52,422 bases of DNA from assembly GCA_031416315.1 (NCBI GenBank), contig JANOTL010000020.1:1-52422 (forward strand). Direction: 5' to 3'. The translations under genes and the position numbers were made by a program. The notes beneath the pieces were generated by a model. It was not told where the DNA came from and made no database searches. It was given only the letters and a program-made list of their open reading frames with translations. Below are positions 297-41,245 of this stretch, piece after piece. Source of the DNA: Pseudomonadota bacterium. GTDB taxonomy: Bacteria; Bdellovibrionota_B; Oligoflexia; Oligoflexales; CAIYRB01. Positions within the stretch are counted from its first letter, which is position 1, and each line of letters starts with the position of its first letter.

Positions 297-316
297 GAAC
301 TCATCGTGAGACTCTG

Positions 317-24866: not shown

Positions 24867-25304
24867 ATGTTGATGCGAAGTCTGTTGCTTGCCTCTGGAT
24901 TCACGTTCGCCCTATCGACGCAGGCCGTCGCGGACCACCGCGATGAAGTCCTCGAGGTCATCAGGGACGCCGATTTTCTCGCGGTAGCAAGCGAAGAGCT
25001 CGCCGAAGCGGCGACGACCCACCACACCGGCTTTTCATCCGCGGCGCTGCGCCTTCACTTCGTATCAGAAGGCTACTCGCGCCTCGTCAGCGAAACGGGC
25101 TTCACCGCCCGGGGCCGCGACACGCGCGACCATCGTGAGGAGACGGCGACATTCGAACAGGTAGAGAACGCATTCTTGGCCCTTGCGCGGCAGTGGAACG
25201 AGAATGCCGGGGACTTCTCTGCCGACGCGGCGCTGTTGGACTCCTACCTGCGCGTGAACGACGAGTATCGAGCGTTGCTCTTCAATGTTTACGACCTGGA
25301 TTGA
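24867..25304 (+). CDS. Exported helical protein with DHR motifs (paralog of 12982-13476)
   Basis: AVA|DHRDE, AALRLHF, RDHRE, C-terminal LLFNVY. Confidence 0.75.
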   Translation: MLMRSLLLASGFTFALSTQAVADHRDEVLEVIRDADFLAVASEELAEAATTHHTGFSSAALRLHFVSEGYSRLVSETGFTARGRDTRDHREETATFEQVENAFLALARQWNENAGDFSADAALLDSYLRVNDEYRALLFNVYDLD

Positions 25305-25390
25305 CGCGAGCCTCGCGCAGGATGCGCAAAAATGAGGCCCTCGTTCGAACGATCGAACGTGGGCCTCCATTCGGCCGTGATTCGAGAAGA

Positions 25391-25972
25391 TCAGTCCCCC
25401 GGCTCGTCGCTGGCGCCGTCGCCTCCGGGCTCATCGGTTCCGCCCCCGTCGTCGGTACCCGGCTCGTCCGAAACGCAAGGATCGCCCGGACCCTGCCAGA
25501 GACCTAGAATCCAGTTGCGCACGACCTCGAGCTCGTCGACCGTGAGGTGAGCCGTCGGGGCCGGCGGCATCTCGCCGTTGCTCATGATCGTGAAAAAGAA
25601 GCTCTGCTCTGGGCATCCGGGCCGCACGAGGTCCTTGCGCGCATGCCCCGTGCCACCGTCATGCGGGTGGCCGTCATCACGATGTCCGACGATCAGCTCT
25701 TCGACGTCGCGAAGATCGACGTGGCGGTTCGCGTCAGTGGCTTCGGAGTGGCAAGAGACGCATCGCTGATCGACGAGGTCGCGCTGCATGCTTTCCGTCG
25801 ATGCGGTGAGCGCAAACGGAGTGCTCGAACCAGGGTCAGGCTGCGGACTGCTCGGCTGTGGAGCCGGCTGGTGTGCATGCGGATCGGGATCCGGTGCGTC
25901 CTTTTTCCGTTCGCAACTGGTCGAGACCAAGGCGAACAGAGCCGCGGCCGATACGAGCGACACGATCTTCAC
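25391..25972 (-). CDS. Monoheme c-type cytochrome lipoprotein with His-rich insert and DEPG tail
   Basis: RBS GGAGGA + GTG; STSC lipobox; CVSCH, VRPGCPEQS, MPP, WI pattern; three DEPG repeats. Confidence 0.8.
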   Translation of the reverse strand: MKIVSLVSAAALFALVSTSCERKKDAPDPDPHAHQPAPQPSSPQPDPGSSTPFALTASTESMQRDLVDQRCVSCHSEATDANRHVDLRDVEELIVGHRDDGHPHDGGTGHARKDLVRPGCPEQSFFFTIMSNGEMPPAPTAHLTVDELEVVRNWILGLWQGPGDPCVSDEPGTDDGGGTDEPGGDGASDEPGD

Positions 25973-25990
25973 GAGATTTCCTCCGTCATG

Positions 25991-26007
25991 ATACCCGGGG
26001 GGAGTAT
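25991..26007. promoter_or_regulatory. CsoR/RcnR-type operator
   Basis: ATAC-CCGGGGGGA-GTAT just upstream of the cytochrome RBS. Confidence 0.75.
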
Positions 26008-26112
26008 ACCAAATTGTGGTCTTTCGCGAGCGGAATCGATCGCGTCGAAATTGCGCGGTAGGCATGCCCGGAACTTGCTTAGGATCGGGGGGCGACAGAA
26101 CAACAACGAGAA

Positions 26113-26232
26113 GCCTACGGTCGCGATCCGGAAATCAAGAAGATCGCTCAGGAGGTGATCGACGCTCAGCAGAAAGAGATCGCCACCTTCCGCGCCTGGT
26201 TGGCCAAAAACCCGAAGAAGCCCGCTCACTAG
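26113..26232 (+). pseudogene. DUF305/CopM-like C-terminal fragment
   Basis: Manual translation AYGRDPEIKKIAQEVIDAQQKEIATFRAWLAKNPKKPAH*; no convincing in-frame start seen. Confidence 0.7.
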
Positions 26233-26236
26233 CCGA

Positions 26237-27262
26237 TCACGGAGCCAAACCGATCAGAACGAACGCCGAAGAATCATCATAGCGATCGCGGACGCAGACA
26301 CCGGCTCTGACGTCTCGACCGCTGATTCTCCGGATGGCTTCGACGCCGCGCGCGCGGTCAGCGCTACAAGCACTGAACGAGCTGAACGTCGGCCCGCGAA
26401 CCTCGCCGAAACCCAGCCCGGAGCCTTCCCGCAAGAATGCAAAGTTCAAATGGAAGCCGCCAGAACCGCTCGCTTGCAGGCACGTCGCGATCAGTGGTTG
26501 GCCTCCGCGCATGGATGATAGCGCTTCCTGCGCAACCTGTAGCTCTTGACTACACTGCGAGACGTCGTCCACTTGTCCGTAGTAGTTCGGCGAGAACATC
26601 GAGATGCCGAGAAAGGCGCCGTAGTAGCTTATGAGCGCGTGCGGGCCCCAGGGCTCGCCTTCAATGATTGACGCGCCGTTGTCGGCGAAAACGGCGGCGA
26701 GGCGCTCCGCAGTCTCCACGTCGACCTCTCCTCGGAATTCGACGTCCTGCTGCCGGTACCGGCGGAGCGGCGTGCCGAATCCGTCGATTCGCAGCGAAAT
26801 GCCGCCGGCGGTACCCGGCTCGCAGTAGGCCGCGACGGCGTCCAAACCCGTCTCCGACTCGAAGCGCGCGACTTCTGCCGCCGCCGCCGAGAAGCACGTC
26901 GCATACTGATCGTAGCGTCCGAATAGCGCGCCGAGATCGAATATCTGCGCCGGCATGGTGTCGTCCTCGTCGGCATCCCAAAACCTGCCGCGCATCGCCG
27001 AGACTACCTGGACGGCGCGCTCGGCGATGTAGGTCAGCTCCAGCTTGCGCCCAGAAAAGCCATCTTCTGCGCAACTCGAGGCGTAGACGGAAAGCCCCGT
27101 TGCCGCCGCGAAACGCGCACCGAAAGCCGCGGCTTCCTGCTCACACGTCGCGCTCGTCGGCGGGACGACGCCCGTCGCGTAACGGAAAAATTCCTCCGCC
27201 GAAGCGCTCGACGCCATTAAGACGCCAACGAAGCAGAGTACCGAGTTTCTTACGATTGGCAT
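26237..27262 (-). CDS. Exported protein with four Cys-pair repeats
   Basis: Signal ASA|EE; C-x~23-C units with RF...TG / ISG core repeated four times. Confidence 0.75.
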   Translation of the reverse strand: MPIVRNSVLCFVGVLMASSASAEEFFRYATGVVPPTSATCEQEAAAFGARFAAATGLSVYASSCAEDGFSGRKLELTYIAERAVQVVSAMRGRFWDADEDDTMPAQIFDLGALFGRYDQYATCFSAAAAEVARFESETGLDAVAAYCEPGTAGGISLRIDGFGTPLRRYRQQDVEFRGEVDVETAERLAAVFADNGASIIEGEPWGPHALISYYGAFLGISMFSPNYYGQVDDVSQCSQELQVAQEALSSMRGGQPLIATCLQASGSGGFHLNFAFLREGSGLGFGEVRGPTFSSFSACSADRARGVEAIRRISGRDVRAGVCVRDRYDDSSAFVLIGLAP

Positions 27263-27312
27263 GGCGTCGGGCTCCTAGAGGAGTTTTCCCGAACCTACCC
27301 TGCACGGGCTCT

Positions 27313-29307
27313 TTACGGCAAGGAGCCGACGATTTGCTGCGCCAGATCGTCGTTCGGACCGGAATTCAATCCAGATTTCCCCCACGACCCCAGAGTCTTG
27401 ACGCTCTCCTGCAAGCGCGTGCGAACGTCCGCCACTGGGGTCGGGCAGACTGGGATGGGCACCTTGAGGGATTCTTGGATCGCGAATAGCGCCGCGCGGT
27501 TTACTGCGAGCGCGGCCGTCCTCGCCGGGGCATCCTTTCCTCTAGCCTCGATGGCCGGAAGCGTCGAAGTCAGCCATTGGTCGAGCGCCGGGCGTACCAT
27601 GCTCCAGCAGCCATTTGCGACAGGCACCCCGAAACCGCGCCCCGTGCCGAAGCGGGAGTCTCCCGCTTCATAAGCGCGTGTGAGTCGTAGCGCGCCGAAG
27701 TACAGCTCATGCATCGGCAGCTCGACCGCGGCTTCCTTGGCCGCATCATGCCAATGCAGCATCTGCGCGTCACCGCCTTCGGTAAATTGCAGCCCGGGAT
27801 CGATGACGAGCCCCGCCGTCAGCCACGGCAGCACCATGCGTTGAGCATCCGCGAGTAGCGCGTCCGGCTCCGGCGCCATCTTCTCGAAGAATTTCGGCGT
27901 GTAGCCCCAGCAACCAAGAACTTCTTGGGCCACGCTTGCTTCGACGCCGCACCCCCTCAACATCGTCACCGCGACCTGGCCGACTTCCCAGATCGAAAAC
28001 CGATGCAGGTCGGGAGCCGCCTTCACGTCGGGAAAGGCCGCTCGGTCATGCCGCATCATGTGTTGTACGACCAGGACGGATTTGAGTTTTTCTCGCGATA
28101 ACCGCTCGGCGACCCCGCCCGGTGAGACGCGTCGCGCGCTGAGGTGGTCCAGAAAATCGTACATGGCCCAAAGTGATTTATCGTCCGGCGTCGCGAGGTA
28201 CTGATTTTGGAGCTTGATCCAGCGCTTTTCGTCCGCGTGATCCCGCGGCTCCATCGGGAGCTCCGGGATCCATTCGGCAGACGTGCGCTCCGCGGCGCCG
28301 TGAAATCCGTCAGCGGTCCACGGATTCAGTTCCAGACCGAGGCGTATCGAACGTACGTCGAGCTCGGCAAATGCTTTGAGCAAGCCTTTCGCGGCCGCGA
28401 GATCCCGCGGCGGCTGCGTCAAATCGATGCCGCCTCTTGCAAGCTCCTTCTCGAAATTCGCATCACGCTCGACGGGCGTCGAGCCGCCCAGCGGCTGGCC
28501 ACCCGGCTGGAACGGCCGAAAGCGAGTCGGACTGCACGGCGTCGTGATTTCGTAACGAGCGCGCAAGGCGTCGATCATGTCGGCGACCAGCATTCCGCCC
28601 TCAGCACTGCGCCCTTGGGCGACGGAGCGCCGCACGATGGTTGCGCGTGAGTAGCCGATGCGTGCCAAGTCGATACCATCGGGCCCGTGGCAGGAGGAAC
28701 AAGCGCCGTCCTTGCCAGAATCTCTCCAGACTGGCAGCCCTTTCGCCATCGTCTCCGCGAAAGCGGCGTCAGAGATCGCAGCAATGGGAGCCAACGGGGC
28801 GACCGAAGTGCCCGGCTGTGGCCCTTCACTTTGCGGAGGTCTCGCTGCCAAAACCGCAAAGTCAGCTCTCAACTGCTCGTCCGTCACGAGCGCTGCGCCG
28901 AAGGCGGGCATCGCCTTCTGTCCTGACCTGACGACGGCGATAAATGCCTCGACCGTGCCGGAGCCAAGGGCTGGAAACTCGGGTCGACCCTCCCCGATCG
29001 AGCCATGGCAGTCAGCGCAGCCGTTGAGGTAGGCGTCGGAGAGCCCTGAAGTTTTCCGCAGCGCCTCGACGGCATCGCGCGTCGGCGGATCAGCGACCGT
29101 GGATCCTTTGCAGATTCCGTCGCCGGACGGAGACTCTATTTTACCGAAGGTGCTCGGCATCGGCGCGACCTGCGTCGGCTCGAAGCCCTCCGCATTGGCT
29201 CCGCTGGGCTTCCTAACATGGACCTCTTTGCCGCCCTGGCGCATAAGGTTACACCCGGCGCAGAGACCGAGCGTCACCAGCCCAACGCTCCAAAGGAGAA
29301 TCTTCAT
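27313..29307 (-). CDS. Diheme c-type cytochrome lipoprotein with large unknown C-terminal domain
   Basis: CAGC lipobox, CADCHG..GEG..FP.L..MPAF, CSSCHG; ATGA overlap with upstream gene. Confidence 0.8.
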   Translation of the reverse strand: MKILLWSVGLVTLGLCAGCNLMRQGGKEVHVRKPSGANAEGFEPTQVAPMPSTFGKIESPSGDGICKGSTVADPPTRDAVEALRKTSGLSDAYLNGCADCHGSIGEGRPEFPALGSGTVEAFIAVVRSGQKAMPAFGAALVTDEQLRADFAVLAARPPQSEGPQPGTSVAPLAPIAAISDAAFAETMAKGLPVWRDSGKDGACSSCHGPDGIDLARIGYSRATIVRRSVAQGRSAEGGMLVADMIDALRARYEITTPCSPTRFRPFQPGGQPLGGSTPVERDANFEKELARGGIDLTQPPRDLAAAKGLLKAFAELDVRSIRLGLELNPWTADGFHGAAERTSAEWIPELPMEPRDHADEKRWIKLQNQYLATPDDKSLWAMYDFLDHLSARRVSPGGVAERLSREKLKSVLVVQHMMRHDRAAFPDVKAAPDLHRFSIWEVGQVAVTMLRGCGVEASVAQEVLGCWGYTPKFFEKMAPEPDALLADAQRMVLPWLTAGLVIDPGLQFTEGGDAQMLHWHDAAKEAAVELPMHELYFGALRLTRAYEAGDSRFGTGRGFGVPVANGCWSMVRPALDQWLTSTLPAIEARGKDAPARTAALAVNRAALFAIQESLKVPIPVCPTPVADVRTRLQESVKTLGSWGKSGLNSGPNDDLAQQIVGSLP

Positions 29308-30227
29308 TCGGCGAAACGTTTGACCGCATCGGCGACGGCGCCGGCGACAGAATCCACCGAAGCATCGCACAGCTCGATGCTCGTCCCGTTTGCCGCGACG
29401 GCGATCGCCGAGAGCCGCGTGGCGACCTTGCTCGTTGCGCCGCAGCTCGTTGCCTTGGACTTATCCGTCGGCGCTACAGCGATGACGATCGACTTGCCTT
29501 TGGTTTGAGTCCGCGCGAGCTTGCTGAAGCCTGCTCCGTCGAGGAACTCCGAGTCGCCGTTTGCGACGACGACGTAGACGCGTCTGGAGTCGGCACGGAA
29601 AAATTTCTGCAATAAGCCCCTGACCGGCTCGAGCGCCCAAAGCCAGGCGTGCCCTAAATCTTCGGGAGTCGCCCCGAGGCGCGATGCGTCGAGGCCGCAG
29701 GCGATCGGCTTTTTGCCTTCCGTGTTATGGGGGTCGGGAAAGCTCGACTTGGTGACCTCGCAGCCTGCGACGAGCGCCGAGAAGAGACCGTCGACCGGCG
29801 CAACTTCGAAGTCGACGGTCTTGTAGCCGTCGGCCGGGACGCCGCTCGGGGCGGACGGCATGGGCTTGCCGCCTCGGTCCCGCTTCCCAGAGACGACCGC
29901 GAGTCGCAGTCCCTTAGCGGCGGCTCCAACCGAAACGACGAGCTTTTGCAGCAAGTCAGGCGCATCCGCCGCTAATTTGGCGCTCGGGTCGTCCAACGCT
30001 AGGGCGATGACGACGTCGACCGGAGGCGCGTCGACGCCAACGGAGCCGGGAGACCCGCTGCCGCTACCGACGACGGCGTCGCTCCCTGAGCCCGTGGTGG
30101 CAGGGTTTGGTGGGGAAGGTTCGCCAGGCGCGGCGGGGGGTTGTGCATCACGCTTGGCGGCCGCGCAGCCTGCCACCGTGAACGCAATCGCTACCATGAG
30201 ACGAAGCTTGATTTGGCGCTTTATCAT
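29304..30227 (-). CDS. Lipoprotein, possibly degenerate vWA-like fold
   Basis: VAGC lipobox, Pro/Gly linker, VDVVIALALDD and RRVYVVVANGDS strands. Confidence 0.65.
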   Translation of the reverse strand: MIKRQIKLRLMVAIAFTVAGCAAAKRDAQPPAAPGEPSPPNPATTGSGSDAVVGSGSGSPGSVGVDAPPVDVVIALALDDPSAKLAADAPDLLQKLVVSVGAAAKGLRLAVVSGKRDRGGKPMPSAPSGVPADGYKTVDFEVAPVDGLFSALVAGCEVTKSSFPDPHNTEGKKPIACGLDASRLGATPEDLGHAWLWALEPVRGLLQKFFRADSRRVYVVVANGDSEFLDGAGFSKLARTQTKGKSIVIAVAPTDKSKATSCGATSKVATRLSAIAVAANGTSIELCDASVDSVAGAVADAVKRFAE

Positions 30228-30235
30228 CGTCTCAA

Positions 30236-30264
30236 GGATACCGAAGTTCGTGAGCGTTTGTGAC
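30236..30264 (-). promoter_or_regulatory. ECF-type promoter GTCACA-N17-GTA
   Basis: minus strand GTCACA-aacgctcacgaacttcg-GTATCC. Confidence 0.65.
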
Positions 30265-30270
30265 ATGCCC

Positions 30271-30307
30271 AAAAAAAGTAGCCCGTCTGCGGACTTAGCA
30301 GACGAGC
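30271..30307 (-). terminator. Rho-independent terminator after MCO operon
   Basis: minus GCTCGTCTGC-taagtcc-GCAGACGGGC-tac-TTTTTTT. Confidence 0.75.
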
Positions 30308-30328
30308 CGACAGGTATGTCCGAACGAA

Positions 30329-30616
30329 TCACGGCTGGACGTGGCACTCCAACTCGCCGTCGTGATTGTGGCAGTTGTAATTGAACTCCATGTTCATCGC
30401 GCCGTGGGTCACGTAGATCTTCACCTTCGAGTCTTCGCCGGTCTTCCAGGACTTGTAGCCGACGAAGTGCTCAGCGTGGTCCGGGTTGGTGGCCTCGAAG
30501 TCTTCGACGGCGAGCTTGGTCACTTCGATGAGCTGCGCCGACGTGAACGCCGCGAATGCCGGCGAGCCGATGACGAGTGCCGCGACGCCGCTGACCAGTG
30601 CAAGAGCTGTCTTCAT
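30329..30616 (-). CDS. Small exported protein with CHxH...CH terminus
   Basis: RBS GAGGGGAG, signal AFA, HAEH, YNCHNHDGELECH. Confidence 0.8.
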   Translation of the reverse strand: MKTALALVSGVAALVIGSPAFAAFTSAQLIEVTKLAVEDFEATNPDHAEHFVGYKSWKTGEDSKVKIYVTHGAMNMEFNYNCHNHDGELECHVQP

Positions 30617-30637
30617 GTTCCACTCCCCTCAATGTGT

Positions 30638-31729
30638 TCAGGTCACTTCGATCCAAGTATGCATGCCGCCCATTTCGTGGGCGGCATGTCCGACCGGCTG
30701 TCCGGGAATCGGGTTGCGGTGCATGTCGTTCATGGTGTGATGCATGAAGTGACAGTGGAAGAGCCACTTGCCGGGGTTCGGGCCGGCGACGAACTCGAAC
30801 GAACGGGCCTCGGCGGAGCTGATGTTTTCCGTGTTCGCCGGCATCTGCATGGAAGGCGGCACGAAGCCGGCGCCATGCTCCGTGATCCGGAACGTATGGC
30901 CGTGGAGGTGAATTGGGTGGCTCAACATGCTGAGGTTGACCACTCGAATGCGCACCCTTTCGCCCATGCGCGCGGACATAGGCACGATGTCCGGCCCCGG
31001 TCGGCCGTTCATGGTGAAGTAATTGAAGTCGTTCATCTCGAGCGTATCTGGGATCGAGCTTCCCGGATGGATCATCCAGATCTGCAGGAAGTAGGCGAAA
31101 TCGCGCTCTACGATCATCCACGGCTCGGGATTCTTCGGATGAACGATGAAGAAGCCCGAGAGGCCCATGCCGACGTGTTTCGCGCCCATGTGATGCGGAT
31201 GGTAGAAATACGTGCCGTGTTGAACGAGCGTGAACTCGACGGTGAAAGTCTCGCCTGGCTCAATCGGCTCCTGGGAGAACCCGGTGACGCCATCCATAGG
31301 GAGCGGCAGATGCAGACCATGCCAGTGTACAGTAGTCGCTTCGGGCAAGTTGTTCGTCACATGAATACGGACGCGGTCGCCTTCGACCGCCTCGATGGTC
31401 GGTCCGATGATCGAGCCGTTGTAGCCCCAGCCGTTGATCGGGCGACGACGAATGCCGTGCGGATCGCTCATGTCTTGGAAGCGGACCGTCACCGGCTCCG
31501 CGACGAGACGGAAGACTTTGACGTTACCCTCCATTTCGAAAGGCAGCGTCGCGATGCCCGGTGTTACCACGGGCACGTAGTTCGAGCTATTCGGCGGCCG
31601 AGGCGTCGGGCTGTCCGCGCGCGCCTTCGGAGTCGCGAGCTCGACGAGTGGCAACATAGCAGCCGTGCCGGCGATACCCGTCATGATATCTCGGCGTGAG
31701 AATTGGCCGCTATTATTCGTGTCAGTCAT
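30638..31729 (-). CDS. Tat-exported small (two-domain) multicopper oxidase
   Basis: SRRDIM Tat motif; HWHG, YHPH, HPIHLHGH, HCHFMHH...M. Confidence 0.92.
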   Translation of the reverse strand: MTDTNNSGQFSRRDIMTGIAGTAAMLPLVELATPKARADSPTPRPPNSSNYVPVVTPGIATLPFEMEGNVKVFRLVAEPVTVRFQDMSDPHGIRRRPINGWGYNGSIIGPTIEAVEGDRVRIHVTNNLPEATTVHWHGLHLPLPMDGVTGFSQEPIEPGETFTVEFTLVQHGTYFYHPHHMGAKHVGMGLSGFFIVHPKNPEPWMIVERDFAYFLQIWMIHPGSSIPDTLEMNDFNYFTMNGRPGPDIVPMSARMGERVRIRVVNLSMLSHPIHLHGHTFRITEHGAGFVPPSMQMPANTENISSAEARSFEFVAGPNPGKWLFHCHFMHHTMNDMHRNPIPGQPVGHAAHEMGGMHTWIEVT

Positions 31730-31767
31730 GACTCCCCCAATGTCTTCCAGCAGTACTATTCTACGTA

Positions 31768-31796
31768 CACTACTTCCTGAAAGGCCCGTTTGTGAC
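31768..31796 (-). promoter_or_regulatory. ECF-type promoter GTCACA-N17-GTA upstream of MCO
   Basis: minus strand GTCACA-aacgggcctttcaggaa-GTAGTG. Confidence 0.65.
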
Positions 31797-31798
31797 GG

Positions 31799-33472
31799 TC
31801 AAGGCGTGCGCTGATAGTGAATGAGCCGATTTTCTGGGAGCGGTACGCCCCAAATTGGCGCACCCGGCCAAAGCAACATGAGACGTCCGTCGGCATCGAC
31901 CACTCCCGTGACCATCCGCGGCCGGTCTCGCTCTTCGGTCAGCCACGCGAGCGTTCCCGTATACGAATCATACGAACCTTGTGCGATTTTGACGCGGACG
32001 CCGAGCCCGCCTGACAAATGCATGGCGCCTTCAAAGGCCAGAGTGCTTTCCTCGCGTCCGACGGGTTGCGTCGGCAATAAGGTGTCGAAGCCCCAGCGAA
32101 CGTCTGAAGAGCTGCCCACGGCCGGTCCTTGGTACGTCCCAGTAATCGGCGCCAACACTTTCGCCGTCGGATCCAGGGGAGGCAGTGGCCCCTTGACGAG
32201 CTGAATGGTTCCCACTCGTCCAAAGGCATGCGAATACCAGACGCCGCGGATGAAGCCTTGGCGCCATTCCTCGACCTGCAGGAAGCCGTCGCTGTTCGGG
32301 CTTTCGAGGTTGAAGCCCGTACTCAGATAGAAACTGCGGCGATCGAACTGCTGAGGCCACCCTTCCGCGTGCGTGTCTCGACCAAAGTGCTGCACACCGG
32401 TCGCCGTAATGACGACCTCGTTCTCGTTATGAGGGTTGTCCGAAGACACGGTCGACATCACGTTGAGGCGAAAGGGCTGATAGCGGTCCAGCGTCTCATT
32501 GTGGAGCCAGCCGGAGAAAGTGCCTCGCAAGGCGTTGACGAGCGCCGTGCTGCGAGGCGGAAGTGGAGCCGGCAACTCAAGGCGTTGCTCAGGGGTGGTT
32601 CGGACGTTGTAATTTCGCCCCGACACGACGAAGGGTCGCGTCGATACGTCGGTCTTGCGCAAGTCGCAGCTCACCGTCTCATCCAAAAACCGGATGCGAC
32701 ACGTGAGGCGACCGGCGGCCAACGCGCATTCGCTCGTCCCCGTCGGCTCGTCGAGAATCAGCTTTCCGGAGAAGTAATTGTAGCTGCCGCCCGAAAAGTT
32801 TCGGACCACGCACCACTCTCCGTCGCAGATGGACGAGTCGCCCTCGGCAAGCCGCGCGACGACGCCATAACCGTGTAGGCCCCGGTCCGCGGCTCCCGAT
32901 ACCGCAAGCCCTTTGCCCGTCGAGATTTGCATGGCCCAGCGCTTCGCTCCGCAGAGTCCTTCGTATTGTCCCGAGAGGCTCGCCATGAACGGCACATCCG
33001 CCCCCGGATCTCCGTCGTCGTCATCGTCGTCGGGCTCGTCCGACAGGTGTTTCAGGAAGATCGTGCCGCTCACCGACGCTGAGCGTACCCACACCTGACC
33101 CGTCACCGTCGTGCTCCCGCCTGCACGGACTTCCGCGGCAATGACTAGGTCGTTGTTCGGCTCGTCGAGCGAGAGCTGGCCATTCGAGAAATCGTAGCGG
33201 ATGTCTTCGAAGATCTCGGTCACATATTCCGAGCCGCCGTAGCCGCCCAGCTGCAGGCGAAAGATCGCATTCAGCTTCGGAAACTGAGTCCGATCGTCGG
33301 GCTGGTCGATATAGGTGTCGACGGTGAGCGCGACGCGTTCACTCGCGTCGTCGAGCTTGACGTAGCCGACGTAGCGTCCGAGCTTCAATTCAGCTTGACC
33401 GAAAGCGGCCGAGCAAGGGAGCCAAATGGTTGCCAGCAGGACAAAGAGGCCACGGAGCAAGTTCGAGCGCAT
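31799..33472 (-). CDS. Large exported beta-rich protein of unknown function (paralog A)
   Basis: 557 aa, signal peptide, colinear similarity to 36712-38451. Confidence 0.85.
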   Translation of the reverse strand: MRSNLLRGLFVLLATIWLPCSAAFGQAELKLGRYVGYVKLDDASERVALTVDTYIDQPDDRTQFPKLNAIFRLQLGGYGGSEYVTEIFEDIRYDFSNGQLSLDEPNNDLVIAAEVRAGGSTTVTGQVWVRSASVSGTIFLKHLSDEPDDDDDDGDPGADVPFMASLSGQYEGLCGAKRWAMQISTGKGLAVSGAADRGLHGYGVVARLAEGDSSICDGEWCVVRNFSGGSYNYFSGKLILDEPTGTSECALAAGRLTCRIRFLDETVSCDLRKTDVSTRPFVVSGRNYNVRTTPEQRLELPAPLPPRSTALVNALRGTFSGWLHNETLDRYQPFRLNVMSTVSSDNPHNENEVVITATGVQHFGRDTHAEGWPQQFDRRSFYLSTGFNLESPNSDGFLQVEEWRQGFIRGVWYSHAFGRVGTIQLVKGPLPPLDPTAKVLAPITGTYQGPAVGSSSDVRWGFDTLLPTQPVGREESTLAFEGAMHLSGGLGVRVKIAQGSYDSYTGTLAWLTEERDRPRMVTGVVDADGRLMLLWPGAPIWGVPLPENRLIHYQRTP

Positions 33473-33489
33473 GAGAGCCTCACTGGTTT

Positions 33490-33506
33490 ATACCCCCCTG
33501 GGGTAT
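33490..33506. promoter_or_regulatory. CsoR/RcnR-type operator between paralog A and csoR
   Basis: ATAC-CCCCCTGGG-GTAT. Confidence 0.85.
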
Positions 33507-33603
33507 CTAATCTCGCAGGCTAACGCCAGCAAATTTAAATTTAAGTCGCCACGTCAGAGTGGCTTCACTTGACCGCGCGGCGGTAGCGGGATAGCAGCTT
33601 GGC

Positions 33604-33915
33604 ATGAAAAAAAAAGCCGTCGCGAAAAAAGCGACCGTCGCCAAGCACCATCCTGACCACGCCCAAGAGCTTCGGCGCCTCAATCGCATCGTCGGCCAGC
33701 TCGAAGGCGTTGGACGCATGATCGAAGAACGACGCTATTGCTGTGACATTCTGCAGCAGACGCGTGCCGTCACTTCGGCGATCCGCGGTCTGGAGGCCGC
33801 GATCCTTTCCACGCATTTACGCCACTGTTTCACCGCCGCGATCGAAACGAAGAGCGAAGAGGCTCGGGCGAAGGTCATCGAGGAATTCGTCGACTTGTAC
33901 GAGCAGCGGCGCTGA
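33604..33915 (+). CDS. csoR: CsoR/RcnR family metal-sensing repressor (Cys-His-Cys)
   Basis: RLNRIVGQLEGVGRMIEERRYCCDIL...THLRHC. Confidence 0.9.
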   Translation: MKKKAVAKKATVAKHHPDHAQELRRLNRIVGQLEGVGRMIEERRYCCDILQQTRAVTSAIRGLEAAILSTHLRHCFTAAIETKSEEARAKVIEEFVDLYEQRR

Positions 33916-33988
33916 GCGTGGTCTGCCTGAATCATGCCTACCGACATTGCAGTGATTTCAGGACCGTAGCCGACCCGCACAGGCCTCT

Positions 33989-34017
33989 GTCACAAAGCGC
34001 TGCCCTGCCCAGTATCT
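33989..34017 (+). promoter_or_regulatory. ECF-type promoter GTCACA-N17-GTA
   Basis: GTCACA-aagcgctgccctgccca-GTATCT upstream of the 34036 / anti-sigma / sigma genes. Confidence 0.7.
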
Positions 34018-34035
34018 ACGGGTGGGAGGTGCGAT

Positions 34036-34446
34036 ATGCGAATTTTCAGCTCGAGTGCTTTGATGTTCCTCACGGCGCTCGGCAGCTCGAAGGCGTTCGC
34101 TCACGGGGAAGACAAACTCGGTCCCAATGGCGGTTTCATCCGTATGCCAGGAGCGTTTCACACCGAGGTCGTACCGACCGCGGACCGCGAGTTCTCCGTT
34201 TTCTTACTCGACCTGAGCAACGGCAATCCGGTGACGGATGGCTCGACGGTCTCGGTCAGTCTCAGGAAGGGCGGCGCCTCGGTCGACGTGACCTGCACCC
34301 CGGCAGCGGCGAGCTTCAAGTGCGTGCTGCCTGCGGACGCAAGCCTGAAATCCGGTCAGCTGCTCGTCCGTGCCTCGCGGCTCGGACTGCCTTCCAGCCC
34401 CGCGTTGTACCCTCTGCCATTGAAGCTGGAGCAGGGTGCGCATTGA
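34036..34446 (+). CDS. Exported protein with N-terminal His, putative metal-binding
   Basis: RBS GGAGGT; AFA|HGEDKLGPNGG...FHTE; Cys pair. Confidence 0.78.
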   Translation: MRIFSSSALMFLTALGSSKAFAHGEDKLGPNGGFIRMPGAFHTEVVPTADREFSVFLLDLSNGNPVTDGSTVSVSLRKGGASVDVTCTPAAASFKCVLPADASLKSGQLLVRASRLGLPSSPALYPLPLKLEQGAH

Positions 34447-34477
34447 TTTGCTGCGCCCGATTCGGGAGAATGCGTCG

Positions 34478-34993
34478 ATGAGCATCAAACGTCTTCAAGA
34501 GCCTCCGCAACGACTCGACCTGGCGATCGAGCGCGCCGTATTGCGCGACCTGGAGCCGGCGATCGCGGTCGTACACCTGAAGACGGCCGCGGCCGCGATC
34601 GTGGGCAGTCTGCTGTCGCTCGCGATCTGTGGGCAGTTTGGAATGGGGTTCACGTCGCTAGCCGACTCCTTCAGCCACGCGCTCCATGCGAACATGGGTC
34701 CGATAGCATGCGCGCTGATCTGCGGCGGGCTTTACGCGATCTTCCCGATCGCGATCCTTCGCTTCGTCCTTTGTAACGTCATGCAGTTTAGAGCCATTTT
34801 TCGTCGAAGCTTCTTTATCATGGCCGCTTGGTTCGCCTGCGTCGGAGCCGTCATGGCTTGGCAAGGCCACCACGGCGATCAAGCTCTCCAGTTCGGTGCT
34901 TGGATCTTCGCAGCTCTGGTCGCGGCGATCGTCCTAGGACGCTTGGCCGGGGCGATCGTCATGCCAATCTTTGACGCACCGGAACGCGTCTAG
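34478..34993 (+). CDS. 4-TM protein with Cys/His, putative anti-sigma factor
   Basis: AICGQFG, HALH, ACALICG, GHHG; adjacent to ECF sigma. Confidence 0.65.
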   Translation: MSIKRLQEPPQRLDLAIERAVLRDLEPAIAVVHLKTAAAAIVGSLLSLAICGQFGMGFTSLADSFSHALHANMGPIACALICGGLYAIFPIAILRFVLCNVMQFRAIFRRSFFIMAAWFACVGAVMAWQGHHGDQALQFGAWIFAALVAAIVLGRLAGAIVMPIFDAPERV

Positions 34994-35022
34994 ACCGTTT
35001 CGTCTCGGCAGAATGGACGCCA

Positions 35023-35038
35023 ATACCCCTGGGGGTAT
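35023..35038. promoter_or_regulatory. CsoR/RcnR-type operator upstream of ECF sigma
   Basis: ATAC-CCCTGGGG-GTAT (8-bp core). Confidence 0.75.
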
Positions 35039-35067
35039 ACTCTTCCTCACCAGTTGAAGTGGGCCCC

Positions 35068-35610
35068 ATGCAGTCGATCGCGGACGAGGAATCGCTCGAA
35101 TCTCTTCTAAGTAGGTATCGCGGGGGAGACGCGGGCGCGTTCCGCGAGGTCTACCGGCGTACGAAGCGGCTGGTTTATGCGTATCTTCGTCGACGTCTCA
35201 GACAGACTTCGGACGTCGAAGACGTCTTCCAAGAGACGTATTTTCGGGTTCACAAGTATATCGCGACCTACGACCCGACTCGAGGCGGTACCACTTGGAT
35301 CCTATCGATCGCGCGGCATGCGATGCTGACCCGCGCCGCCGAGCTCAAGAAGAGCGCTGCGACGGCGGGTCCGCATCTGACGGACGACCTTGCTGGAACG
35401 GAATCGACCGCCGAAGGCGTCGAGATCAAGGGACTGTTGACTGACCTCTGTCGCGATTTATCGCCAGACGAGATCGACCTGCTCTATCAACGGGTCTTTT
35501 TGGACGTCGGGTTCGACGTGCTCGCCGCTCGGCACCAGACGAGCGAGGCGAATACGCGACAGCGCCTTTCGCGATTGATGCGGAAGCTTCGATCGAACTG
35601 GGGCAGCTGA
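35068..35610 (+). CDS. ECF RNA polymerase sigma factor
   Basis: GDAGAFREVY, DVEDVFQETY, WILSIARH, RQRLSRLMRKLR; start 35059 or 35068. Confidence 0.9.
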   Translation: MQSIADEESLESLLSRYRGGDAGAFREVYRRTKRLVYAYLRRRLRQTSDVEDVFQETYFRVHKYIATYDPTRGGTTWILSIARHAMLTRAAELKKSAATAGPHLTDDLAGTESTAEGVEIKGLLTDLCRDLSPDEIDLLYQRVFLDVGFDVLAARHQTSEANTRQRLSRLMRKLRSNWGS

Positions 35611-35636
35611 CGTCGCTTGCCCCCTATGGCAAATGC

Positions 35637-36317
35637 CTATCGAGGCGTGGGTCCAGGTCCCGGGCCGGGTGCCGGACCAGGGTCGGGAGCGGGCCCTGGC
35701 CCTGGACCCGGACCGGGGCCCGGACCTGGTTCGGGACCTGGCTCGGGACCGCCAGGATCTGGATCCGGTCCCGGCCCTGGATCGGGAATCGGTGTCGGAT
35801 CAGGCGCAGGCTCGGGAGCGGGAACCGGGTCGGGCAAATCCGGGACGTCGGGAATCTGAATCGAGGTTCCTGACGGCTGATTCGGCAGCTCTGGATAGAC
35901 GAATGGTGCCGGTTTCGGACGGTCGAGCAGCGCCGATACGGAATCCTCGTCATTTTGCGGCTTCCGCTTGCACAGGGGCACTTTGCGACCCGTTCGCCCG
36001 AACGACTCGGCGAGCTGGAGCGCAATGTCCGCCTGCTTCGCCTTCGACTCGCCGATCTCGAGATCGAGCTCCGCGAGCTTGGACGCGGTTCGTAGGATCT
36101 CGTACTCCTCGCGAGAGATCGCGTCCCGCTCGAGGAGCTGCTCCGCGCGCGCGTATGCCTGGCGCGCGCGTGAAAGTCGAGCTTTCTGGCGCGCGAGCGA
36201 ACCGTAGGCACGTTCCTTTGCGGACGCGAAGAGATAGAGATGCGTCGACTCCGCCATGACCGGCGTCGCGACGAAGAAAAATCCCACTAGGAGCCAAGCG
36301 CAGCGCGCCATGTTCAT
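35637..36317 (-). CDS. Exported alpha-hairpin protein with Pro/Asp/Gly tail
   Basis: Signal peptide; RAEQLLERDAISREEYE; KVPLC; PD/PE/PG tail; ATGA coupling. Confidence 0.75.
   Translation of the reverse strand: MNMARCAWLLVGFFFVATPVMAESTHLYLFASAKERAYGSLARQKARLSRARQAYARAEQLLERDAISREEYEILRTASKLAELDLEIGESKAKQADIALQLAESFGRTGRKVPLCKRKPQNDEDSVSALLDRPKPAPFVYPELPNQPSGTSIQIPDVPDLPDPVPAPEPAPDPTPIPDPGPGPDPDPGGPEPGPEPGPGPGPGPGPGPAPDPGPAPGPGPGPTPR
35646..35856 (-). repeat. Low-complexity hexanucleotide-like repeat encoding (P-x)n tail
   Basis: PDPGPGPDPDPGGPEPGPEPGPGPGPG. Confidence 0.8.
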
Positions 36318-36715
36318 TCCATCTCGTAAGTGCAGAGCGGAATCGAGACGCCGCGATTGACGAGGCCGGTGATGATCTTGAGGTAGGCTTTCGACTCGTC
36401 GACTTTCTGGTTCGCCAGGTCGATGTCCGCCTTCGACACGGCGTCGTCGGAGACCAGGGTCTCGTATTCTTCGAGGGACATGGCCCGACTCGCAATCAGC
36501 CGGCGCCCACGCTCGAGCTTCGAGGCGGCGAGCTCCGCGAGCGCCGCTTTACGTCGGCTGTTCGCCTCCGCCTGCGCGACCCGCAAACGGTAGAGCTCGA
36601 TGTACGGGTTGTCGTCGCCAGCGGTCTCATCCGCGTAGGCGTAATACCCGAGCGTAGCGCCCAATCCGAGCGCCAGCGTCGTCGCCGCGATCCAGATCTT
36701 GATCCTTGCCTTCAT
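36314..36715 (-). CDS. Exported alpha-hairpin protein (paralog of 35637-36317 core)
   Basis: AYA signal; RGRRLIASRAMSLEEYE; SIPLC; ATGA coupling on both sides. Confidence 0.78.
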   Translation of the reverse strand: MKARIKIWIAATTLALGLGATLGYYAYADETAGDDNPYIELYRLRVAQAEANSRRKAALAELAASKLERGRRLIASRAMSLEEYETLVSDDAVSKADIDLANQKVDESKAYLKIITGLVNRGVSIPLCTYEME

Positions 36716-38451
36716 GGTTCCACCCCCATACGAGAATAAGTGCCAAACTCTCGATCAAAAACGCTGACGGCCCAGGCGCGCTCGTTCGGCCAGAAAAGTT
36801 TCAGGTCGCCGCGATCACCCACCCGCCCCGTAACGAGGCGGGTCTCGCCATCATTCGCGGCGTCGACGACCCAGGCTAGGGAGCCCGAGTAAAAGTCGTA
36901 GGCGCCTTCCGTGATGCGAATGGAGGGCCAAGACACGCCACCGGCGGTTAGGCGCGAGTTTCCTTGGAACACGAGCAGGCTCTTGTCTGAGGTCCTAGGC
37001 TGGGTCGGCACGAGAAGCTTCGCATCCCAGAATTCACGGCCGTCGGCACTGCGCTCCGACGGACCATGGAAGTCGCCGATGACGGTGGGAACCATGCGTG
37101 CGCGGGCGTCGAGCGTCGGGAAGCGGTCCGATTTCACGACCTGAAAGGTTCCGACTCGACCGAACTCGCGTGAATACCAGACCCCGGTGACCAGTCCGCG
37201 TTGCCATGTCGAGACTTGGAGGAAGCCGTCGGTTCCCTCGCTCGAAAGAATGAAGCCCGGGACGACGTACAAGGACCTCCGATCATACTGCTGCGCAAGT
37301 AGGTCGGGGCTTTGACCTCGGCCGAAATAAAGCACCGAAGTCACGGAGACGTGGACCACGTTTTCATTGTGCGGGTTGATCGAGGAGTTCGTCGCGACCA
37401 CGTTCAGACGAAGCGGCTCATAGAGACCAGTCGTCTCATTGTGCAGATAGCCGAAGAAGGACCCGCGAGCAGCGGTAATGAGCTCGGCATTTGCCGGCGG
37501 CAATGGATCGGGAAGCGCACGCCGTTGATCCGGCGTGCTGGCGACGTTGTAGAAGCGGGACTTGGGCTCGTACTCGGTGATCTCACTGCCGACCCGATGG
37601 AAGCGGCAGTCCTTTTCGAGGAGGCCGTCGCCGTTTCTGGGAATGATGTGCATGCGGCAGGAGAAAGACGCGCCGTCGCGTTGGCACTCGTTGGTCTCAA
37701 GCGTCCCGGACAAGAAGAGCTTGCCCTGATAGTAATCATACTGCCCCGAAGAAAAGGCGTGGTCGACGCACCAGACCGGGCGACCGGAGGCATTGACGGC
37801 CGAGCACAGACCGTTGCCGATGCCGAGGGCTCCGGTAATCTTGTAATCGTGAAATCCGCTCGTCGGCTCGGAGCCCGCGTCCGAGAGGCCGCGAGCCGTC
37901 TCGATCTGAAGAACCGCGGACTCTTCGCCGCACGCGCCCTCGTACTGCCCGGAAAGGGTCGGCGCCAGGGGAGGCAACGGCCCGGTTCCGCCGCCACCCG
38001 GCTCGTCGCTCTGGAAATAGAGGACCAGTCGGCCCATCTGCCCGGTCGAGCGGAAGACGACTTCACCCTCCATCTGCGTAGGGTTCGAGTAGACGACGGC
38101 GGTCACGATCATCTCGTTCTCGGCTTCGTCGAGGGCCAGCACTCCTAGATCGTAGCTATAATTGACCGCGATGAAACGCTGCGTCTCATACTCGCTCGAA
38201 ACGAAGCCGCCGAGGCTCACCCGAAAAAGGAGCTCCAAGCGCTGAAAGGCGTCAATGCCATCGGGCTTGAACAGGTAGCTGTCCATGGTGAGCGCCAGAG
38301 CATCAGATTGACCCTCCGGCTGCACGTACCCGACCCACTTGCCGAGCATGAGCTCGCCCCCAGGCTCGCGGGCATCTGCGACGGAATGTGTGCTCACGGC
38401 CAGCGTCGACATCAGCAACGTGCTTACGAGTCGGAAGATGGTTCTCATCAT
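36712..38451 (-). CDS. Large exported beta-rich protein of unknown function (paralog B)
   Basis: 579 aa, signal peptide, colinear similarity to 31799-33472. Confidence 0.85.
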   Translation of the reverse strand: MMRTIFRLVSTLLMSTLAVSTHSVADAREPGGELMLGKWVGYVQPEGQSDALALTMDSYLFKPDGIDAFQRLELLFRVSLGGFVSSEYETQRFIAVNYSYDLGVLALDEAENEMIVTAVVYSNPTQMEGEVVFRSTGQMGRLVLYFQSDEPGGGGTGPLPPLAPTLSGQYEGACGEESAVLQIETARGLSDAGSEPTSGFHDYKITGALGIGNGLCSAVNASGRPVWCVDHAFSSGQYDYYQGKLFLSGTLETNECQRDGASFSCRMHIIPRNGDGLLEKDCRFHRVGSEITEYEPKSRFYNVASTPDQRRALPDPLPPANAELITAARGSFFGYLHNETTGLYEPLRLNVVATNSSINPHNENVVHVSVTSVLYFGRGQSPDLLAQQYDRRSLYVVPGFILSSEGTDGFLQVSTWQRGLVTGVWYSREFGRVGTFQVVKSDRFPTLDARARMVPTVIGDFHGPSERSADGREFWDAKLLVPTQPRTSDKSLLVFQGNSRLTAGGVSWPSIRITEGAYDFYSGSLAWVVDAANDGETRLVTGRVGDRGDLKLFWPNERAWAVSVFDREFGTYSRMGVEP

Positions 38452-38485
38452 GTTTGCGAACTGCCCCCTTTGGTTCTTGCGGGCA

Positions 38486-38514
38486 CTCTACTCGCGCTCG
38501 GAGAGATTTGTGAC
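38486..38514 (-). promoter_or_regulatory. ECF-type promoter GTCACA-N17-GTA
   Basis: minus strand GTCACA-aatctctccgagcgcga-GTAGAG. Confidence 0.7.
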
Positions 38515-38531
38515 ATTCAGAAAGGATCGGG

Positions 38532-38548
38532 ATACTCCTCGGGGGTAT
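38532..38548. promoter_or_regulatory. CsoR/RcnR-type operator upstream of paralog B
   Basis: ATAC-TCCTCGGGG-GTAT. Confidence 0.75.
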
Positions 38549-38592
38549 AGTCCACGGGACATTCCTGCGCAAGAGGGCACGGCCCTCGTGCG

Positions 38593-38817
38593 TCAAGTGA
38601 GCGCAGTCCCTTTATATCCGGCGTCCGTCAGCGCATCGATCAGAAGAGCCACTGGGGCCTTTTCCGGATCGTGATCGACCACGACTTTTCCGTCGCTCAG
38701 AGTGACTTTGACGTCCCCAACCCCAGGGAGAGCCGTCAGCGCGTGGCTCACATGTCGCACGCAAGATTGGCAGGTCATGCCGTCCACCTTCAAGGCCGTA
38801 TGTCTTTCGGTCGTCAT
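38593..38817 (-). CDS. copZ: Copper chaperone (HMA domain)
   Basis: VDGMTCQSC...AGY; RBS AAAGGAG. Confidence 0.92.
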   Translation of the reverse strand: MTTERHTALKVDGMTCQSCVRHVSHALTALPGVGDVKVTLSDGKVVVDHDPEKAPVALLIDALTDAGYKGTALT

Positions 38818-38847
38818 GCTGTCTCCTTTCGTTTCCTCGCTCTTAAA

Positions 38848-38873
38848 GACGAGAACGCGCGCCGAACCTTACA
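38848..38873 (-). promoter_or_regulatory. ECF-type promoter TGTAAG-N16-CGTC for copZ
   Basis: minus TGTAAG-gttcggcgcgcgttct-CGTC; mirrors 38949-38974. Confidence 0.72.
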
Positions 38874-39016: not shown

Positions 39017-41245
39017 ATGCGCACCGCCGACCTGCCAGCACCACGTTCGATCGCAAAAACAGAGACGAAGGAAGAGACGCAATCATTTGCCATCGAAGGC
39101 ATGACCTGCGCCTCGTGCGTGCGCCACGTCGAGAAGGCATTGCTGTCCGTCGACGGCGTAACCAAGGCAACCGTGAACCTGGCGACCGAGAAGGCCTTGG
39201 TCGAAATGCGCGCCGAAGTCGACCCGCAAAGTCTCGTGAATGCCGTCGCCAAGGCCGGCTACGACGCCACGCCTATCGTAAAGGGCGACACGCGGAAGAC
39301 GGTCACGACGCCCTCGAGTGGGTCGGAGCTGTGGCGTGTCATTCTCGCAGCGCTCTTATCCATGCCGCTGGTGATGCCGATGCTCGCCGAGCCATTCGGC
39401 GTGCACTGGATGCTACCTGGATGGGTCCAACTCCTTTTTGCGGCCCCAGTTCAGTTTTGGCTCGGCGCAAGGTTCTACCGCGCCGGTTGGAAGGCGCTGC
39501 GAGCCGGCAGCGGCAACATGGATCTCCTGATCGCGATCGGGACGTCGGCGGCCTTCGCGCTGAGCTTGGCGCATTTTTCGACCGGTCCGCTCTACTTCGA
39601 GAGCTCAGCGGTCATCATCACGCTCGTCCTCTTAGGGAAATGGCTCGAGAGTCGGGCCAAGCGGCAGACGACCGAAGCCATTCGCGCCTTGAGCGCCCTC
39701 CAGCCAGAGCGAGCAATCGTGCGCCGCGGCGGGCGTGACGAGGATGTTGCGATCGACGCGCTTCGCGTCGGCGATGTTTTGGTCGTGCGACCGGGCGAGC
39801 GTGTTCCGACCGACGGCGTCGTCACCGAAGGAGCAAGTCACGTCGACGAGTCGTTGATCACGGGAGAAAGCGTTCCCGTGGCGAAGAAAATCGACGACAC
39901 CGTCACTGGCGGCGCCATAAATGGGGAAGGGCTCCTGCTCGTCCGCGCGTCCGCCGTCGGCGCCGAGACCACGCTGGCGCGAATCGCGCGCATGGTAGAA
40001 AGCGCTCAAGAAGGCAAAGCGCCCATTCAGCGCATAGCCGACAAGGTCAGCGCGGTTTTCGTGCCGATCGTCCTGGCGATCGCCGCCTTGACGTTTGCCG
40101 GCTGGTGGCTCGTGAGCGGTGATGTGGCTGCCGCTGCACTCAACGCCGTCGCCGTGCTCGTAATCGCTTGTCCTTGCGCACTAGGGTTGGCCACGCCGAC
40201 GTCGATCATGGTCGGGACGGGAATGGCGGCCCGTCACGGGATCTTGATCAAAGATGCCGAGGCGCTCGAGATCGCGCATTCGATTAAGACGATCGCCTTC
40301 GACAAGACGGGGACGCTAACTGAAGGGCGCCCGGAATTGGTCCGCATCGTCGCGGCGAACGGCACGGACGCCGAGCTTCTCCAGATCGCGGCCTCGATCC
40401 AGCGTGGAAGCGAGCACCCCTTGGCGCGGGCCGTGACCTCCCGCGCCGCAGAGACTTCGCAATCCCTACCGTCCGCCACGAACACGAAGGCTTTGCCCGG
40501 TCGCGGCGTCGAGGCCGAGGTCGACGGCAAGAAGTACCTCCTCGGCAGCGCGCGGCTCATGCACGAGTCGGCCGTACCGCTCGGCGAGCTCCTCGGGGTC
40601 GCCACCTCCCTCGAAGCCGAAGGCCACACGGTTTCCTGGCTCGCCGCGCCGGGGACGGGACAAGCGCTCGTCGGACTTCTCGCCTTCCGTGATGCCGTAA
40701 AGCCGACGGCCAAGGCCGCCGTGCAGCGCCTGCACGATCAAGGCATTCGGACGGTCATGGTCTCCGGCGACAACCAGCGTGCTGCACAGCGCGTCGCGAC
40801 CGAGCTGGGAATCAGCGAGGTCGTCGCCGAGGTGCTTCCTGCCGACAAAGCCGGGGTCATCGACCGGCTGCGGAGCGCTGGTGGCGTCGTCGCCATGGTT
40901 GGAGACGGGGTCAACGACGCACCGGCTTTGGCGCGCGCCGACGTCGGAATCGCCATGGGTACCGGAACCGACGTCGCCATGCATGCCGCAGGCGTCACCT
41001 TGATGCGAGGCGACCCACGCCTCATCTCTGACGCCGTCGATATCTCACGGCGTACCTACCGCAAGATCAAGCAGAACCTATTTTGGGCGTTCGCTTACAA
41101 CATCATCGGGATTCCGCTGGCCGCGCTCGGTATGCTGAGTCCGATCCTCGCCGGCGCCGCCATGGCCTTCAGCAGCGTGAGCGTCGTAGCCAATGCGCTT
41201 CTGCTGCGCCGCTGGCATTCGAGCGCCAGCACGGGTAAATCATGA
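39017..41245 (+). CDS. copA: Cu(I)-translocating P1B-type ATPase
   Basis: GMTCASC, TGES, CPC, DKTGT, SEHP, GDGVND, YN and MAFSS. Confidence 0.97.

Follow-up and report, generated by a model that had tools for sequence, protein, structure and literature searches.

We analysed a 52,422-nucleotide stretch of DNA from a Pseudomonadota bacterium of the Oligoflexia (the window, which is contig C20 of a 6,364,778-bp genome, 93% complete). Between positions 25391 and 38548 it carries a gene cluster centred on two paralogous exported proteins, A (557 amino acids (aa); 31799..33472, minus strand) and B (579 aa; 36712..38451, minus strand), and on a type B two-domain multicopper oxidase (30638..31729, minus strand). 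We read the cluster as a variant form of the periplasmic copper-oxidase operon, in which the partner proteins come from an uncharacterised family predicted to fold into avidin-like barrels. The module is real and conserved and apparently undescribed: no paper on the four-barrel/oxidase system was found, as judged from search listings, and supplementary files could mention these genes. We consider a functional coupling of barrels and oxidase very likely. It is likely, with moderate confidence, that A and B are accessory subunits of the oxidase, which would oxidise toxic periplasmic Cu(I), and we lean to a similar degree towards a direct physical partnership of the two in Cu(I) detoxification.

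A survey of gene neighbourhoods, of the kind the preliminary description of this DNA had called for, found the barrel proteins tightly linked to the oxidase, to a small 95-aa protein and to a heme-c lipoprotein across two phylum-level samples, and natural fusions besides. A alone matched 38 of 131 genomes of its own phylum, and a profile matched 33 of 61 relatives and 36 of 401 genomes of a second phylum sample. Fetched flanks gave 145 family rows; 44 under 480 aa (fragments and two-barrel forms) were left out, and 101 entered a FastTree phylogeny with local supports. A and B fall into one 29-row clade (support 99), where an oxidase gene lies within 6 kb of 24 of the 29 genes and within 100 bp of 18. 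For each of the five genes without a nearby oxidase the contig ends no more than 1 kb away. Outside the clade the oxidase occurs within 6 kb in 4/72 rows, all of them in neighbouring lineages. The other recurrent neighbours of the 29 clade genes are the small protein (19), csoR (12), the heme lipoprotein (11), alpha-hairpin genes (9), a 341-aa protein (7) and a copper ATPase (5), counts that include A and B themselves and come from loci many of which are truncated. Copper-ATPase or Cus-type genes recur near the clade loci. The genes stay together although their order and orientation change from locus to locus, and both samples contribute genomes to the clade; related genomes are not independent in these counts.

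The linkage is also seen from the side of the oxidase. Searching the 401 genomes returned 26 oxidase matches in 20 of them, 17 near a barrel gene, four fused to one, three at contig ends and two without; in the 131-genome sample 9 of the 11 oxidase genes lie near a barrel gene (exceptions L258 and L260). Pairwise identities of oxidases and barrels correlate over 27 pairs (Spearman rho 0.86, reached in 0/2000 permutations), which speaks of co-inheritance rather than binding and can be produced by shared descent alone. Six in-frame fusions join the oxidase to the barrels (P0134, P0067, L206, L250, L251 and the truncated L257; 29–72% identical to one another), and in P0163 a heme-c domain is fused to four barrels. 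P0134, P0067 and P0163 are single-member clusters, the further fused forms (L206, L250, L251, L257) came from genome searches, and a second database search for fused forms gave three matches, none of them new. The L250 fusion is followed by homologs of the heme protein and of the small protein.

A and B had first been described as two colinear exported paralogs without an assignable family, and both statements stand. Their genes are colinear, and an alignment of 582 columns gives 38% identity. Neither has a Pfam match at E 0.01 or an NCBIfam family, and a 135-sequence profile found no PDB match below E 0.97; one match to a glycosyltransferase fragment (E 0.01) was disregarded. For A, the ESM Atlas returned nothing at 0.9 (DUF6006 at 0.83 and an Avidin-bearing cluster at 0.80 are leads only), and Foldseek with the whole protein gave weak matches only (BFA1, TM score 0.16). 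A word-based search found 18 relatives, a full profile search 368 clusters at E 0.001. The structure of A predicted by AlphaFold from 135 sequences (pLDDT 94, pTM 0.91) consists, behind a signal peptide, of four all-beta domains, predicted eight-stranded barrels at residues 32–142, 168–273, 317–427 and 445–556. Among 48,161 chains, avidins match its fold best (Z 9.1–10.5, root mean square deviation ∼3 Å over ∼100 residues, 10–20% identity), values obtained for residues 438–557, barrel 3 having barely been tested alone; OmpW (Z 9.5), designed barrels and an amine-dehydrogenase barrel come next. Comparison with hhalign relates barrel 1 to 3 (99%) and barrel 2 to 4 (97%), a duplicated two-barrel unit, and two-barrel family members do exist: all 18 complete-looking ones lie near pumps of the resistance-nodulation-division (RND) type.

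With avidin/streptavidin and calycin barrels (avidins, the quinohemoprotein amine dehydrogenase barrel, BFA1, TbpB/HphA) the predicted domains share an eight-stranded, antiparallel, soluble barrel (Z 9–10.5). Unlike these proteins, A has four barrels per chain, at most 20% identity and no Pfam or PDB sequence match; the shared fold shows no function. An outer-membrane channel of the OmpW or PcoB type was rejected, as the modelled strands average 7.8 residues, only 6/33 reach 10, and 8/98 family members end in Phe, Tyr or Trp. Because of these short strands and the lack of an aromatic C terminus, we argue that A and its family are soluble exported proteins. Barrel 2 of A holds six conserved cysteines. 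Barrel 3 carries an NPHNxN loop that is specific to the clade, its His348 being present in 97% of A's clade versus 0% of the other two groups, unlike His324 and Glu326, which are conserved family-wide.

The oxidase (363 aa) comprises Cu-oxidase_3 (residues 99–200) and Cu-oxidase_2 (228–337) domains behind a twin-arginine signal. Its type 1 (T1) copper site, His271/Cys326/His331/Met336, is confined to domain 2 and all eight type 2/type 3 (T2/T3) histidines are present, so that 12/12 copper ligands are in place; the same ligands and signal are found in 20/20 main-clade oxidases. This agrees with the definition of type B enzymes as having two cupredoxin domains, a T1 site only in the C-terminal domain and eight T2/T3 histidines (available text of PMC13151041). 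CjMCO and SLAC, both type B, have the same domain pair, T1 placement and histidines as the window oxidase. Unlike them, the window enzyme is paired with barrels; the available text of PMC13151041 mentions no partner protein for type B. All seven enzymes checked outside this pattern, four fusions and three sister oxidases, lack both the twin-arginine signal and the T3 ligand His179. Signal and trinuclear-site histidine are missing together in L206:7985-10687, L250:7921-10557, L251:9177-11846 and P0134 and in the sisters L176, L177 and L178; judged by these residues, the fused and sister oxidases are possibly a distinct enzyme subtype.

The arrangement of A followed by a Tat (twin-arginine translocation) oxidase and a small protein is confirmed: a gap of 70 bp separates A from the oxidase gene, the 95-aa gene follows, and a terminator-like hairpin with a T run closes the set (30280..30308, minus strand, 11 pairs; such scans overall are not above shuffle level). 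The 95-aa exported protein (30329..30616, minus strand) has 11 database relatives; its Met76, Cys82 and Cys91 are invariant and Trp57 and His71 nearly so. It is predicted to form a helix and a four-stranded sheet, a cystatin/PepSY-like fold (best match a designed cystatin fold, Z 9.6; natural cystatins 5–6), while Foldseek found nothing at E 0.001 and the ESM Atlas nothing at 0.9 (YebF at 0.85, a lead only). The preliminary description had singled it out for a CHxH..CH motif. Its two cysteines, Cys82 and Cys91, are invariant; because they lie on neighbouring strands of the model, a disulfide between them is more probable than a metal site. The conserved His71, Met76 and Trp57 recall what we take to be the ligand set of CusF.

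Control by a CsoR-type repressor had also been proposed, and the comparison with related loci bears it out. The repressor gene (33604..33915, plus strand) diverges from A and its product matches PF02583 with 86 bits (cutoff 22.8). Its Cys47/His72/Cys76 align with the ligands of its three best solved-structure matches, all of them copper CsoRs (4adz, 4m1p, 2hh7), so that the Cys-His-Cys set claimed for it stands; the ligands are kept in 5/5 aligned homologs. The N-terminal His of its HPDH segment aligns near His21 of InrS, a position that leaves some doubt on the metal choice. Four boxes, TAC-x-GTA near-palindromes with C/G tracts and AT-rich inverted flanks, lie in the cluster and had been placed directly upstream of A, B, the heme lipoprotein and an extracytoplasmic function (ECF) sigma factor. 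The four are real and the placement needs adjusting for two. In the A/csoR divergent region the box (33490..33506) is 17 nt upstream of A, and the box before the ECF gene (35023..35038) overlaps the −10 hexamer of a sigma70-like promoter (35014-35041). The B box (38532..38548) is ∼80 nt upstream of B rather than adjacent, and that of the heme lipoprotein (25991..26007) lies inside the longest open reading frame, upstream (by 18 nt) only of the probable GTG start at 25972.

A strict form of the box pattern, drawn post hoc after the sites had been seen, matched five times in 6,364,778 bp, four of them within the 12.5 kb from 25991 to 38548, and never in 3 Mb of order-3 Markov sequence; a looser form matched nine times in the genome, four in the cluster, and once in 3 Mb of simulated sequence. 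Unrelated genes follow the remaining strict box (C70:1441). The independent test comes from related loci, in which the box is present in 9/11 that carry csoR versus 0/19 without it, and in 4/62 loci of other clades; at L041 it stands 16 nt before the A homolog, as in the window. In repressor ligands and box the system is like the CsoR regulons of Mycobacterium, Streptomyces and Bradyrhizobium (csoR-cueA), and the CsoR-box printed for Bradyrhizobium in the available part of PMC5057107 resembles the window boxes. Unlike those regulons, the boxes here precede envelope genes and an ECF sigma gene, and the genome scan found none before the neighbouring copper ATPase (39017..41245). We hold with high confidence that the window's genome has a CsoR regulon released by copper.

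The system had further been placed outside the Cop, Cus, Pco and Cue sets. This was overstated, because the oxidase belongs to a group found in TolC-oxidase-cupredoxin-chaperone operons. Its nearest annotated relatives, proteobacterial copper oxidases, are 45–50% identical over 87–95% of the length, and in both records opened they sit in operons of TolC, oxidase, cupredoxin and copper-binding genes. For the corresponding operon of Sinorhizobium meliloti CCNWSX0020, the available text of a review reports induction by copper and a proposed periplasmic Cu(I) oxidation coupled with export (PMC6266702); the available text of PMC6769254 yielded nothing about this operon. The Sinorhizobium operon, with similar ones in Ralstonia and Jannaschia, shares with the window a large exported gene directly upstream of the oxidase and small exported genes downstream; the 45–50% identity holds for annotated Ralstonia/Jannaschia-type enzymes, and the Sinorhizobium enzyme is likened by operon description only. 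Unlike these operons, the window has four-barrel, cystatin-fold and heme-c proteins in the TolC, cupredoxin and CusF slots, and CsoR boxes and natural fusions in addition. A Pfam scan of the cluster genes found no TolC-family outer-membrane efflux protein, cupredoxin or CusF, and a TolC-like gene lies near 1/26 clade loci and 1/4 sister loci. The barrel gene stands where those operons have their TolC gene, and its product is not predicted to be a channel. In its proposed working the module resembles the known TolC-oxidase operons, yet it departs from them in three of their four genes. The Mnx complex and Rhodobacter CutFOG, compared by description, likewise have a multicopper oxidase gene beside an accessory-protein gene, unlike the window in that their accessories are small and its partner is a 60-kDa four-barrel protein. 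We assume that neither has an oxidase of the two-domain type. The available texts present MnxE3F3G (PMC5622069) and CutFOG (PMC8456105) as oxidases in need of accessory proteins whose genes adjoin their own.

A mechanism consistent with these data would begin with cytoplasmic Cu(I) releasing CsoR from the four boxes. The oxidase would be exported by Tat and trimerise as type B enzymes do (a homotrimer, going by the available text of PMC13151041), while A would be exported by Sec, form disulfides and dock on the oxidase in the periplasm. The barrels could scaffold the oxidase, or the His of the NPHN loop, together with the His/Met protein of cystatin fold, could pass copper or another substrate to it. 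The heme-c lipoprotein might tie the unit to the membrane or exchange electrons, B and two hairpin proteins might be a second version of the accessory unit, and CopZ and the copper ATPase would deliver Cu(I) outward.

Several observations weigh against this proposal. The family as a whole is not specific to copper: a 39-row clade has no oxidase at all and lies beside Czc/Cus-type pumps in 20/39 rows, and a 17-row group lies beside sucA, ggt or an M48 peptidase in 16/17, with no metal link. These neighbour labels come from sequence likeness, and the names are presumably right. The phylogeny indicates that the family is older than its copper link. csoR, expected to co-occur with the paralogs, is near only 10/26 clade loci, and two-component genes are near 5/26. 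His (1.65%) and Met (1.68%) are no higher in the clade of A and B than in the other groups, and a His/Met copper sponge was rejected for the barrels for want of such enrichment. The four full-length fusions checked have all lost the NPHN His, one trinuclear-site His and the twin-arginine signal; they may not share the oxidase chemistry, and the fusions probably stem from one event. Three loci (L042, L046, L044) have a frameshifted or broken oxidase gene, the two loci opened for proteobacterial relatives contain no barrel gene, and the available text of PMC13151041 describes type B enzymes as poorly understood in their physiological role.

In one alternative the barrels serve the envelope at large, as lipoproteins that bind ligands or make repairs; they would have been recruited into metal islands, where they are co-induced with the oxidase and touch neither copper nor enzyme. 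The vertically inherited group beside sucA/ggt/M48 (16/17 rows), which has mostly lipobox-like N termini, the clade beside Czc/Cus-type pumps (20/39) and the flat His/Met content speak for this explanation. It is at odds with six oxidase fusions and one heme-domain fusion, with 18/29 genes adjacent within 100 bp despite shuffled gene order and with the clade-specific His loop, and we consider it unlikely. Slightly less probable is a role in which the barrels bind an organic ligand (a phenolic, a metal chelator, a quinone) or another metal such as Mn(II) and feed a laccase-like oxidase, copper regulation only timing the making of a copper enzyme. Avidin- and calycin-like barrels are small-molecule binders, the match to that fold reaches Z 9–10.5, the heme-c partner fits electron transfer, and MoxA is presumably of the same subfamily as the window oxidase. 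In the available texts the Cellvibrio type B enzyme is a slow laccase (PMC13151041) and MoxA a reported Mn-oxidising oxidase, with doubts (PMC8218464). CsoR-type repression, on the other hand, responds to copper excess, Cu-ATPase and Cus-type neighbours recur, and the Sinorhizobium TolC-oxidase operon is copper-induced according to the accessible portion of PMC6266702.

A third possibility concerns the repressor, which could sense nickel, cobalt or persulfide in the manner of InrS, RcnR or CstR, leaving the regulon without a copper response. Those repressors share the CsoR fold and have similar boxes, the N-terminal His lies near His21 of InrS, and the RicR model was not reached (69 versus 175 bits). 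The three best solved-structure matches are nevertheless copper CsoRs with Cys47/His72/Cys76 aligned, and a copper oxidase, CopZ and a copper ATPase are encoded in the regulon or beside it; we regard this reading as very improbable. We also entertain, with considerable doubt, a wider form of the accessory-subunit proposal, in which the four-barrel family would act as an adaptor that hands off metals in the envelope and is specific to the Bdellovibrionota/Oligoflexia lineage. One of its clades would provide a trimeric two-domain copper oxidase with an obligatory subunit, in place of the TolC-type channel of proteobacterial operons, and another would serve Czc-type pumps. If so, an avidin-fold module would serve metal handling, and the His-deficient, Sec-exported fused enzymes would represent one more kind of oxidase, with an altered copper chemistry.

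Dependence on partner proteins is known for few oxidases, going by the accessible parts of PMC5622069 and PMC8456105. Throughout the lineage described here a type B enzyme is accompanied by a heme lipoprotein, a small His/Met protein and the unnamed four-barrel protein, and the natural fusions can be expressed as single chains for a direct test of enzyme role and supply. At least 368 clusters make up the protein family that the analysis defines, and the copper handling described is that of a group for which the literature listings showed no paper on this system.

B belongs to a subclade linked to hairpin genes. As first described, it is translationally coupled to two genes for alpha-hairpin proteins, overlapping (ATGA) the gene for a 133-aa exported protein (36314..36715, minus strand; conserved PLC motif at the end), which in turn overlaps that for a paralogous 226-aa protein (35637..36317, minus strand; Pro/Gly tail). 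Both resemble only the alpha-hairpin of RND adaptors, at E 5e-5 and 5e-6, below cutoff. An identity as RND periplasmic adaptors, which combine the hairpin with lipoyl and barrel domains, was rejected, only ∼70 residues matching with 20–26 bits, below cutoffs. As parts of the module the hairpin genes are found mainly in the B subclade (6/7, versus 3/22 in the rest of the clade).

The heme lipoprotein (25391..25972, minus strand) is a mono-heme c protein with CxxCH, a conserved MPP and an acidic DEPG tail; a GTG at 25972, preceded by GGAGG, is its probable start. Acidic DEPG repeats occur in this tail (25391-25470), in the linker after barrel 1 of A (residues 144–156) and in P0041. The ECF sigma factor (35059..35610, plus strand) is preceded by a gene for a membrane protein that is likely its anti-sigma factor (34436..34993, plus strand), homologs of which adjoin homologous ECF genes, and by one for a 136-aa exported protein of no family (34036..34446, plus strand) with homologs beside the oxidase in L164 and L258. 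A 341-aa exported protein with invariant Cys pairs (26237..27262, minus strand) has homologs adjoining barrel genes in both the oxidase-linked (7/29) and the pump-linked (11/39) clade, and its family has no Pfam or PDB match. Members (window 26237-27262; L001:8987-10060) carry ten invariant or near-invariant Cys in repeats and often overlap barrel genes, with further copies on C35 and C138. Between it and the heme lipoprotein lies a start-less DUF305 remnant (26083-26232, plus strand; E 2e-6), the trace of a lost gene; DUF305 includes, we believe, the copper protein CopM. A 685-aa multi-heme cytochrome lipoprotein (27313-29370, minus strand) and a 347-aa lipoprotein of no family (29304-30347, minus strand) were rejected as core parts, homologs of each being near 0/26 clade loci; the pair (27313-30347, minus strand) lies after the terminator-like hairpin.

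The contig is a metal island with a cation-efflux gene, two CusA/CzcA-type pumps, CopZ and a copper ATPase. Genes for a conventional CopZ-type chaperone (38593..38817, minus strand) and a conventional copper-translocating P1B ATPase (39017..41245, plus strand; TIGR01511 above cutoff) are the immediate neighbours of the cluster, and 10 kb from it is a CusA-type pump. A contig from a sequencing run covers 24500-40219 with even depth, zero differences and no sign of a chimeric join; that run is possibly the source of the assembly and so not independent of it. Between the pump genes and the cluster (20607-24753) lie divergent genes for two YVTN beta-propeller lipoproteins whose loops contain His, one of them bearing heme motifs. 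At 12940-13476 and at 24867-25304 the window encodes a small, helical exported protein that has DHR repeats and matches no family. The sequence at 51500-51640 is a repeat with copies on dozens of contigs, frequently at the contig ends.

Among related loci, a gene of the MbnB/TglH/ChrH family and one for a small Cys-containing exported peptide adjoin the small protein and the oxidase at L042:785-2861; peptides of this type are linked to copper. A ceramidase-family membrane gene adjoins the module in two relatives (L005:8921-9658, L007:13205-13870). At L052, L061, L065 and L056 a single-copy lipoprotein-like clade of the barrel family is fixed beside sucA/lpd, ggt and M48 peptidase genes across several families of the order. 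The genome's own pump-linked family members are on contig C111, to which the first kilobase of the window (213-1201, a cation-efflux gene) is 92% identical (C111:35721-36710). A further metal island, L001/L002 (C111 17000-33200), encodes four members of the barrel family (two with four barrels, one with two and one that is longer), a protein of the 341-aa family, a 260-aa beta protein and two Czc-type pumps, in an order that recurs in many relatives.

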